A DNA stretch of 63,569 bases, counting the filler, from Reticulomyxa filosa (Eukaryota > Protista > Foraminifera), in the NCBI GenBank assembly GCA_000512085.1. It is 20 parts of 20 records of this genome, joined end to end, with 100 filler letters (N's around TTAATTAATTAA, not from the genome) between each part and the next. Parts side by side here need not be neighbours in the genome. Positions count along the whole stretch, not along the records: positions 29,080 to 31,584 come from ASPP01044184.1; 19 more parts are not named here. One strand, written 5' to 3'. Numbering within the stretch: position 1 is the stretch's first letter; each line of letters starts with the position of its first letter. Shown one piece after another: positions 29,080 to 31,584 of this stretch. The translations under genes were made by a program, and so were the position numbers. The notes beneath the pieces were generated by a model. It did not search any database. It saw nothing but the letters and a program-made list of their open reading frames with translations, and had not been told where the DNA came from.

Positions 29080-29720
29080 CTTCTTCTTCTTCTTCTTCTT
29101 TTTCTTCGGCTTCATCCTCCGTCCCTTCTTCGGTGGTCGTCGTCAAAACCAGTGGCAACGACGTGACGGACTTTTCCATGCATATGCCAGCAGTCCATGA
29201 CGCCAAGCTAGGCACGACAAACACATACTTTGGCGTGGTATCGACCGAAGCAGCTCCGAAGCCGTCGCGTCCGCATGTAAAAATGCACGAGAACAACAAG
29301 CTGTCCGACCGCTTCTTTGGTTCCAACGGCTTCTCGTCTTTGGTGGACGACCGAACCATGGCCGCGCCCTTCTGTGTCGGCCAGTTCCTCCCTGGAACAA
29401 CTCCGCACGGGAAAAACGCTTGCTCAGCAAAATACAGCCCATTCCGGAGACATACATCATCATCATCATCGCCAATTGCCACACAGTTTTGCAATTTTTT
29501 TTTGAATTGGTTGCTAATTGAAATCAATCGATTCATTTGAAATATATTCATTACGACAGTCCACCATTCCCACCACCATCAAAGCGGTGCGCTTCCATCA
29601 ACAGAGATTACAACGACGACAATGATGACCACTGCATACAGCAGTGGACATGTGAAGCTGGGCCATATCACTTTATCGGGTACTGGAATTAATAGTCTTC
29701 CCAAAACAAGCTTTCCTACT
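29080..29720 (+). CDS. Low-complexity Ser/Thr/His-rich protein, 3' fragment
   Basis: GC-elevated open frames SSSSSF...VVVKTSGNDV... and TTVHHSHHHQSGALPSTEITTTTMMTT; the strand is uncertain because the antisense frame is also open. Confidence 0.4.
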
Positions 29721-30178
29721 TTTTTTTTTCAATTGCGAACTTTCCCTTTGTTGTAAAGTCAATGATCTGCCGCAATTTGGTCTTGGTACTGCAAAATAGG
29801 GGTCCAACAGAGATATATAAAAATTCATTGATATCCATTTCTACGTTTATCTTGAGATGTTCAAAGTAATAATAAGTCAAGTGATAGTCAAAAAACAAAT
29901 GAAATCAATAAATTTCAAATCAGTATTTGACAGTACCGTAAGCATGTATTTCACTGTTACACACAGCACACCTTTTCAACTTCTGAACACAACTAAAACA
30001 AAATGCGAAATGGCCACAAGGTATTAAAATATGATTGGATTGTGCATCGCATATTCAACAAGTTTAGTTAGTATTTTGTTTTTCTTTTTCATCGAAAATT
30101 TTTCTGATGACTTGATTAATCCCATTTTCTTTGTTTTCTGCAATCGCTTCATTAGCACTTAATTTTTCAATAACATAA

Positions 30179-31584
30179 GCTCACAAGTGCGATTTCGCGT
30201 AGTAGGGATAACTCTACACGCGATCTACACTCAGAAAAACCTCTGCTTCACCTAGTGAGAAGAGGTCATAGAGACAAACCCCCTATGGTAACCGGGTATG
30301 ATTTTTCTTCATACCAAGTTTTCCTTTTGGATTACTTAATAGAAAGAGGATGCCATCTAAATCAGTCACTAGGGCCTTTCATTCTGTTAGGCGCTTCAGG
30401 TCTGAAGCAAACCTAGGGTTGTGCCTTCATAATTATAATCCCTTGCATTTAAAAAAGGGAAACTTACATCGCTCCAAACTTGTAACCTTTATCTATAGAG
30501 AGGGGGGGCCGCAGAAAGTGCGCATAAGAGTTATGCGTAAAAGGACCTACTCCTATAATAAGGTTGTGGAGAAAGGGAGGTTACGGTCTGCTCTTTTGTT
30601 AGGGGACGAGTTTACTCAGCGACAGGAGACCGATTATGAAGCTGGTGCGCGTTCCTAATTGCAAACGTCACACACAGTCCATAAGTACTAGTAGGCGACG
30701 TCCTATGGACCTCCGTCCAAGTCACTACATCTGGTCCTGTGAAACACAGGATAATATATCTAATTGTAGTTTAAAAGGTCTTGGTCCGAGGGGTTGGGCC
30801 ATATGATGTTGGGACCAAAGACCTACAGCACTGGGAACCTAGCCTTAGGGTGATCTTAAGGATAGTCAAATGACCTCGGAGAAGGCCCAGCAGCGTGCTT
30901 ATGGGGGGTGATAACATTTGTCCGGAGACGGCTTTGTTGTGACGTAGTGTAATCGTAGAGCCACTCGACTCCCATAATCGGATAGAATATCTCCTCCGTC
31001 CTATGACAACACAAGACAGCAGGATACCCAAAGGTTGCTATGCACGCCAGTGTATGTTGTGTTCGATAGCAATACACACAGGCTGCCAACAACCGGGAAC
31101 CAGGACCTGAACCGAATGCCTTATAGCAGCGCGGGATATAGAGGGAGACCCACATGAGACGTGGAAATATACTCTCTTGCCAAGCCATGCCCTAAAGTAA
31201 ATGGTCCTGCAAACGAGGACTATGGTAGGTAGTGGTGGTATCGTGTATACTTGTGAGCAGGAGCCACATATTACAGCTAGCAACACTATGTCGAAGGAGG
31301 AGGTTTAGTACGAGGTACCGTGCGGCTTCCTTGGCCTTCCCTATAGTGCCTAGTAAGTGTTGGCGTGTGGAACAACTCCTACGGCCTGAGAGCACTGATG
31401 AGCCCAATGGCAGGGCAAAACCGTGTATAGCCTTCTAGGCCCAGTTGGTCCGAAACCTACCTATGTTGCACCCTTTGGGGAAGCCAATAGGATATGAGGA
31501 TGCGAGCAACCTAGAAACTAATATATATACACCCTTACAAGGTAGTAATGGCCAACATAAAAGGATCGATCGGCTCCCAACACC
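30179..31584 (+). ncRNA. Large, highly structured non-coding element (candidate structured RNA or retroelement leader), 3'-truncated
   Basis: Abrupt GC rise, no credible ORF, and near-continuous nested helices with many G-U pairs on the + strand (details under findings). Confidence 0.65.
31383..31441 (+). ncRNA. Hammerhead ribozyme-like motif (type I topology, G12A variant)
   Basis: CUGAUGA-GCCC(AAUGGCA)GGGC-AAAA-C(CGU)G-UA, enclosed by GGCCUGAGAGCA / UAGCCUUCUAGGCC. Confidence 0.5.

Follow-up and report, generated by a model that had tools for sequence, protein, structure and literature searches.

The window analysed here is a 63,569-nucleotide stretch of DNA from Reticulomyxa filosa, made up of 20 contigs with 100-base spacers. 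One 2505-nt contig (29080-31584) ends in a structured, non-coding element of foreign composition, which starts at 30179 on the + strand, reaches the end of the contig at 31584, and is 1400 nt long (30179-31578) if it ends at its 3′ closing helix. The element contains the catalytic strand of a type III hammerhead ribozyme and, far upstream, a GUC-containing strand suited to be its substrate. We consider it probable that these are the halves of a split hammerhead, disabled, within a real foreign structured RNA. As the best explanation we tentatively propose that a foreign RNA replicon, non-coding and ~1.4 kb in length, is represented here by a single copy in genomic DNA, that is, a reverse-transcribed, hammerhead-processed circle which was inserted behind a host gene and then lost G12 of its ribozyme. 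The replicon would probably have been a viroid-like or retrozyme-type circle.

Composition, host setting and boundaries

The composition of the contig changes between 30170 and 30200. The jump in GC content reported in the preliminary description was reproduced (0.22 at 30061-30120 compared with 0.47-0.50 from 30179 on; 47% for the element), as was the loss of the host A/T tracts, the longest A/T run being 6 in the segment and 7-28 in 56 host windows. At 1.17, the TA ratio lies above that of every host window (mean 0.65, maximum 0.95); the CG ratio is 0.65 and the AA ratio 0.95. The dinucleotide signature of the element is foreign, lying outside all 56 host windows.

The 3′ part of a host gene lies upstream on the + strand (29082-29692), with a GT-AG intron of 74 nt at 29486-29559, the splicing of which gives two exons in frame, and a TAA stop codon at 29690. 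A Pfam search with its first exon gave no match. Elsewhere in the window there is a WD40 exon with 272 relatives; all 120 among the matches listed are from Reticulomyxa filosa, one of them at 100% identity.

The distance from the end of the host gene to the element is 490 nt and the orientation of the two is identical (+). This arrangement would suit a host non-coding RNA gene or a 3′-UTR control element of the upstream gene, comparable to Clec2, with a hammerhead that was domesticated or arose by chance; split hammerheads are known in 3′ UTRs (PMC2920678, available sections). We regard such an origin as quite improbable, given the dinucleotide signature, the loss of G12 and the lack of a match to any Rfam family. 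A run of five Ts argues against transcription by polymerase III, and the element has such a run internally (30302-30306). Nor is there a convincing telomere-template-like word in the element, and telomerase RNA was rejected as a candidate.

It is also unlikely, to a slightly lesser degree, that the contig is chimeric or contaminated and that the element, as a structured RNA gene of bacterial, phage or organellar origin, is not part of the host genome. The assembly is fragmented and the sole sequence matches to the element are phage and metagenome hammerheads, both of which would fit a contaminant. Against this, the composition boundary is the first base of the outer helix, a coincidence that a random join would rarely produce (~4%, an estimate), and the element had no blastn match among phages, plasmids or E. 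coli genomes. The GC content also speaks against a mitochondrial source, foraminiferan mitochondrial genomes having 21.5-23.5% GC according to the available text of PMC13421374.

On the right, the segment ends at 31584 because the contig stops there. The last 7 nt of the contig do not resemble flanking host sequence, so the element may go on beyond them. We saw no clear target-site duplication at the element, where the right flank is at most 7 nt. The 8-mers at 30179-30186 and 31573-31580 differ by one mismatch and could be a worn target-site duplication.

Folding of the element

The preliminary description had drawn the segment by hand as one large, ornate multibranched RNA. The 11 helix strands checked, all among those with a stated position, were found in place, and the + strand folds better than the shuffled controls that it had asked for: the folding energy is -462.8 kcal/mol, compared with -424.4 +/- 9.4 kcal/mol for 30 dinucleotide shuffles (z -4.1). 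For the minus strand of the whole segment z is -1.85, a value as low being seen in one of 25 shuffles. When the 1400 nt were folded as a circle, z was -4.7 (23 shuffles), with 64% of bases paired and 28 hairpins.

The fold signal is uneven. The most strongly structured part is a row of short hairpin arms near the 5′ end (30195-30480, +), for which z is -5.3 on the + strand and -2.8 on the minus strand. The central domain (30624-30995, +) has five collinear long-range helices with probabilities of 0.92-0.99 and is structured on both strands (z -2.7 on the + strand, -4.0 on the minus strand). For the rod at 31259-31380 z is -2.8, its upper part (31276-31354, +) having helix probabilities of 0.91-0.99, and for 31381-31584 it is about 0.

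The hand-drawn helices fared unequally in the ensemble. The outer helix, AGGAGA/TCTCCT, CCGATTATG/CATAATCGG and the three upper rod helices have probabilities of at least 0.9, whereas GTAACCTTT/GGAGGTTAC, AGGAG/CTCCT and CCACAT/GTGTGG are at 0.0 and CTGCT/AGCAG and GGACG/CGTCC at 0.23-0.30; GCGAT/ATCGT and a proposed three-way junction were left out of this count. The argument that frequent G-U pairs point to selection on a + strand RNA found no support, there being no excess beside the short hairpins (10 G-U, 12 A-C). Shuffles have perfect stems of 7-10 bp at least as often (125 of 200 contain a 10-bp stem), and the best 70-nt duplexes within the element were equalled by two of 21 shuffles. 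A structured RNA is what remains of the original proposal; a single fold held by G-U-rich helices is an overstatement, since part of the hand-drawn fold loses to competing pairings and several alternative partners exist for the region of the substrate. On these folding models the element appears to be a structured RNA for which the hand-drawn fold is only partly supported.

The catalytic half of the hammerhead

The catalytic half occupies 31388-31425 (+) and consists of a stem I strand, CUGAUGA (31395-31401), stem II (GCCC/GGGC) with the loop AAUGGCA, AAAA in place of GAAA, and the stem III strand CCGTG. It was the top match, a weak one, in the Rfam scan: Hammerhead_3 (type III) at 31379-31426, with 17.2 bits and an E-value of 2.6, where the cut-off is 48.5 bits. 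With a model built from 21 phage hammerheads the motif scored 36 bits (E 4.8e-9) and the runner-up in the 63.6-kb window 10.5 bits, the score being inflated because the training set had been retrieved with the motif itself.

Using the core list of PMC3088659, we found C3 U4 G5 A6 N7 G8 A9 followed by stem II with G10.1-C11.1 (CUGAUGA and GCCC/GGGC). The stretch G12 A13 A14 A15.1 is not intact: position 12 (31417) is an adenine. G12 is the general base of the hammerhead (PMC6155905, available part), and in a viral hammerhead mutation of the general-base guanine abolished function (PMC13725137, available part). Section 8 of PMC3088659 names no G12 variant; its supplements (figures S6 and S7) could hold some. 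With this one core defect, the copy is predicted to be dead, that is, the ribozyme is predicted from its sequence to be inactive here.

All 21 aligned phage hammerheads have C11.1-G12, in a set retrieved with patterns that demanded the C and allowed G or A at position 12. The change at G12 is therefore one from CpG to CpA, the product expected from methyl-cytosine decay in DNA; methylation in the host is only putative.

A near-copy of the substrate, TACGGCCTG, lies beside the catalytic half (31380-31388, +). It is identical at 8 of 9 positions, has C at position 16.1 and gives rise to the compact Rfam alignment. Read locally in this way, the motif would have two core defects and a stem I of only 2 bp. 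By eye, GCC at 31384-31386 can form 3 bp, no more, with GGC at 31409-31411 in loop II, and by analogy with the phage relatives could kiss that loop. A second GAAA, at 31452, is intact and allows only two contiguous stem III pairs.

A distant substrate half and the split ribozyme

The substrate half was found at 30582-30595 (+), where a stem III strand (TACGG), the GUC triplet and a stem I strand (TGCTCTT) follow one another, so that U16.1 and H17 stand between stems III and I; the predicted cut is after 30588. The halves are ~790 nt apart and would pair through seven base pairs in stem I and five in stem III, ten of them Watson-Crick. A substrate site as good was seen in 11 of 5000 shuffles (as with all three shuffle-test p-values, the pattern was first noticed by eye) and nowhere in 120,802 nt of host sequence. 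Unrelated real DNA, with loci fetched by the substrate word left out, gave one match in 587,694 nt, or 0.0024 per 1406 nt, the same rate as the shuffles. No remote substrates were found for the 21 compact phage hammerheads in 52,456 nt.

On their own, the two pieces fold unconstrained into the three-way junction (-30.3 kcal/mol). Forcing the junction in the whole RNA costs 9.8 of 462.8 kcal/mol (~2%). The outer helix crosses the pairing of the ribozyme, which brings the probability of the split ribozyme down to 0 in the full-length nested ensemble. Once the 300 nt at the 5′ end are removed (RNA start at 30480), stem III reaches a probability of 0.80 and stem I 0.26; starting the RNA at 30300 gives only 0.02 for stem III. 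Three simulated rolling-circle transcripts gave at most 0.3 for the split ribozyme. Given its absence from the nested ensemble, the ribozyme must form as a pseudoknot, or as a transient fold beyond what the program scores, or not at all. Additional pairing flanking the ribozyme core was not significant, 200 of 500 random flanks being equally stable.

The ends, the hub and a possible circle

The 5′ strand of the outer helix (30179-30188, +) pairs with 31249-31258 through 10 Watson-Crick pairs (p 0.99) and starts at the composition boundary. An internal hub at 31249-31265 (+) is complementary to both ends of the element in register, with 10 bp to the 5′ end, one unpaired A and 6 bp to the 3′ end, where the closing strand GGCTCC (31572-31577, +) pairs with 31260-31265 (p 0.99). 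This register was equalled by 15 of 5027 shuffles and by 97 of 20,000 random 25-mers. Joining 31578 to 30179 would yield one continuous helix.

A 1400-nt circle opened at some point other than the cut site would leave ends that pair like this in a unit-length copy, and on sequence grounds we take the pairing as no more than suggestive. Closing the circle costs 3.2 kcal/mol, which is not unusual, since two of 23 shuffles close as cheaply, and the hub strand has a rival partner in the base of the rod. Serial RNA domains often begin adjacent to one another. It counts against a circle that the copy is opened inside a helix and not at the cut site. For a minus-strand ribozyme, the element holds no hammerhead core or twister word and only partial hairpin and HDV words.

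Coding potential and known RNA families

The claim that no ORF looks like a protein held up: all six frames, read through stop codons with X, gave no Pfam or PHROG match, so that at 64% pairing the element combines compact structure with the lack of a protein homologue. A minus-strand frame (30859-31584) is open for 242 codons except for two TAG codons, an extent reached in 4-6 of 400 shuffles in one of 15 tests. Its GC content is flat by codon position, with no codon periodicity, and a hidden protein was rejected, as there is no homologue and the only matches are to phages at E 0.8-1. A 78-aa piece gave no usable Atlas match. On the + strand of the 1400-nt circle there would be a Met-ORF of 117 aa across the junction (31463-31578 joined to 30179-30416) and a second, basic Met-ORF of 102 aa (30350-30658) that overlaps its end; two circle ORFs of at least 102 aa occurred in none of 1000 shuffles.

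The frame from ATG 31463 stays open to the end of the contig. This is one of several features that could instead point to a longer, linear retroelement or RNA virus which runs on past the contig end and of which the element is the 5′ leader or LTR; the split hammerhead would then serve to trim this leader or to license the translation of a downstream ORF. We see a minority chance of such an origin, perhaps one to be kept in mind above the other alternatives. The contig ends within sequence that is not host-like, the structure fades past 31380, and among fungal viruses the megabirnaviruses and others have hammerheads in large 5′ UTRs (PMC13725137, available part). The open stretch, however, is only 40-48 codons and has no homologue (three apparent matches are sums over repeats, the best single stretch scoring 7.5 bits). 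The ribozymes of the megabirna-, chryso- and fusarivirus 5′ UTRs, in the same part of PMC13725137, share with the element their place in a large untranslated region; they differ in being compact and type I and in being followed by viral ORFs, where the element has no ORF with a homologue. A search for LTR repeats gave none, and the only candidate primer site is a 7-nt match by eye to a tRNA-Met site. No LTR start comes after the purine tracts at 30498-30508 and 30568-30580. The related suggestion of an IRES-type UTR found no support because no ORF with a homologue follows.

As the preliminary description had it, the element is not a known RNA: the Rfam scan gave no family at gathering score. 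Searches for a tRNA, a tmRNA and a sigma-70-like promoter were negative. Nuclear, bacterial and mitochondrial rRNA were rejected, as there is no Rfam match and the alignment and chain scores against E. coli 16S/23S are at shuffle level (a single bin of the 19 stood out at word length 8, in scrambled order). A scrambled rRNA or mitochondrial insert was likewise rejected, on the same rRNA scores and on the much higher AT content of mitochondrial DNA in foraminifera. The group II-like alternative found no support, with no Rfam group II match at E<=10 and no domain V by eye in the contig; a domain V could lie past the right end of the contig. GUGCG (30187-30191), at the composition boundary, and the hairpin at 30498-30557 resemble the consensus of group II intron ends; the 5′ bases at GUGCG form a local hairpin. 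The hairpin at 30498-30557, 370 nt past GUGCG, is purine-rich with a bulged A, ends in CUCCUAU and is domain VI-like by eye, with no domain V between.

Relatives of the hammerhead

The suggestion of an undescribed large structured RNA, such as a ribozyme-bearing element or a viroid-like copy, is supported by the hammerhead core with its distant substrate strand; no relative or second copy was found in the phage, plasmid, viral-contig, metagenome and prokaryote sets searched. A scan of viral contigs with a pattern built from the motif gave 44 compact hammerhead loci. Three of the 44 have the loop II word of the element, which was free in the pattern, and are 93% identical to it over 29-32 nt. 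Six compact hammerheads from a metagenome pattern scan have flanks unrelated to the element. Scans of prokaryote genomes gave no loci; of six further viral-contig scans, four gave none and two gave 8 and 76, and in none of those 84 did the similarity extend further. In three phage records the hammerhead is the one feature shared with the element.

In the phage/metagenome family, loop I UGCC is complementary to loop II GGCA, and L026, L029, L039 and L045-L050 are compact type III hammerheads whose loops I and II kiss through Watson-Crick pairs. A start codon follows closely after several members, and two copies are present in L047.

Loop I of a compact hammerhead of this phage-like type could have received an insert of ~790 nt, a mobile or self-splicing RNA that was group I-like or of some unknown kind, and removing that insert would restore the ribozyme. 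The halves fit the compact family (a 6-bp stem I in 19 of 21, loop II AUGGCA and GCC beside stem I), and the insert is preceded by a U, could have a G as its last base and has a U-G hairpin at its start. A post hoc group I descriptor fits P3, P4, P6 and P7 in order (21 of 3000 shuffles), but recovers only 24 of 126 real loci and has a second, overlapping match in the element. Further points make this alternative unlikely. The element has no Rfam group I match at E<=10, and a profile of 114 real R-S stretches found nothing in it. Its R-like strand is buried in a hairpin of -19.8 kcal/mol, compared with at most -11.6 in the 126 real loci, and forcing the group I core costs 26 kcal/mol. By these tests (Rfam, the R-S profile, the forced core and the burial of R) a group I core was not found, and a group I intron inside the hammerhead is a weak candidate. 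At 30651-30867, words resembling P, Q, R and S of group I introns stand in the correct order, R and S with indels and buried in stronger helices.

Comparison with known systems and proposed origin

The nearest parallel to the arrangement of the halves is the split type III hammerhead of Clec2 in mammalian 3′ UTRs (PMC6155905 and PMC2920678, available sections). There too both strands are on one transcript, with a helix I gap of 150-1500 nt (~790 here). In contrast to Clec2 as described in those sections, the element is a 1.4-kb foreign RNA in a protist, has lost G12, has a structured spacer and has an outer helix crossing the ribozyme pairing. The compact phage and metagenome hammerheads (L026, L029, L039, L045, L046 and L050; loop I UGAUGCC, loop II AUGGCA, 6-bp stem I) are nearest in sequence, their core and stem II being those found 93% identical; unlike the element they are compact and intact, several lie just before small ORFs, and their flanks differ. 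Relative to the non-circularly permuted hammerheads of PMC10085705 (available part), the strand order of the element is that of an ordinary type III.

Plant LTR retrozymes, as presented in the available sections of PMC5680766, are likewise non-coding genomic elements of 1-1.5 kb with a type III hammerhead and a compact branched RNA. Their ribozymes are compact, however, and no LTR pair, second hammerhead, clear primer site or 4-bp duplication was seen in the element: the window contains one hammerhead, and a long direct repeat was not found, the contig being cut at the right. CarSV and environmental viroid-like circles (PMC11722881; 10.64898/2026.09.16.752053; both in their available parts) share with the element a hammerhead-bearing RNA, circular in their case and putatively so here, and CarSV has a DNA form. 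Those RNAs differ in length, at 275 nt for CarSV and 286-685 nt for betaviroid-like RNAs, and have ribozymes on both strands. In the same available parts, CarSV DNA is multimeric and extrachromosomal, unlike the element, and the betaviroid-like RNAs, which come from public data, are rod-like, two that were tested having no DNA form. With one hammerhead and no LTR pair found, the element fails to qualify as an LTR retrozyme, and with no minus-strand hammerhead core or twister word it fails to qualify as a symmetric viroid-like RNA.

DNA forms of hammerhead circles are known for CarSV and retrozymes (PMC11722881, available part). In the origin that we favour, a copied circular replicon, the halves would have been docked in the ancestral RNA by long-range pairing (7 bp in stem I, 5 bp in stem III and the GCC/GGC loop contact), and the docked ribozyme would have cut after 30588 and so released monomers. 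The outer helix, crossing the ribozyme pairing, may have served as an off switch. A host or viral reverse transcriptase would then have copied one round of the circle, the DNA copy would have been inserted behind the host gene, and the CG to CA change at G12 would have arisen later, in DNA. More speculatively still, and with correspondingly little confidence, the element could be the first trace of large, branched, non-coding circular RNA replicons of Rhizaria, in which the hammerhead exists only as a long-range pseudoknot between two domains 790 nt apart and is gated by a helix that clamps both ends of the replicon, the circle being occasionally copied into the host genome as an exact monomer.

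Ribozyme searches with compact models miss hammerheads whose halves are far apart, as the 17 bits obtained here with Rfam against a cut-off of 48.5 illustrate. If the split hammerhead is real, ‘orphan’ circles and inserts that seem to lack a ribozyme may in fact conceal a split one, and the split arrangement is not peculiar to mammals. A foraminifer would then also carry a ribozyme-bearing RNA element, something on which we found no earlier paper: in the available text of the literature searched there was no relevant hammerhead or ribozyme report for Reticulomyxa, Rhizaria or foraminifera. Among the matches listed for discontinuous hammerheads, no title or opening lines named a protist case; the supplements of viroid-like surveys could hold similar circles. 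With one predicted cut site, the split hammerhead could be tested cheaply using two short RNAs.

Two further observations concern viral contigs. At one locus (L006, 1501-3020) there are four hammerhead cores with a spacing of 420-535 nt. Others (L178-L180, L150-L151, L190-L191 and L198-L199) have two or three group I-like R-S cores, mostly within 1-1.5 kb.
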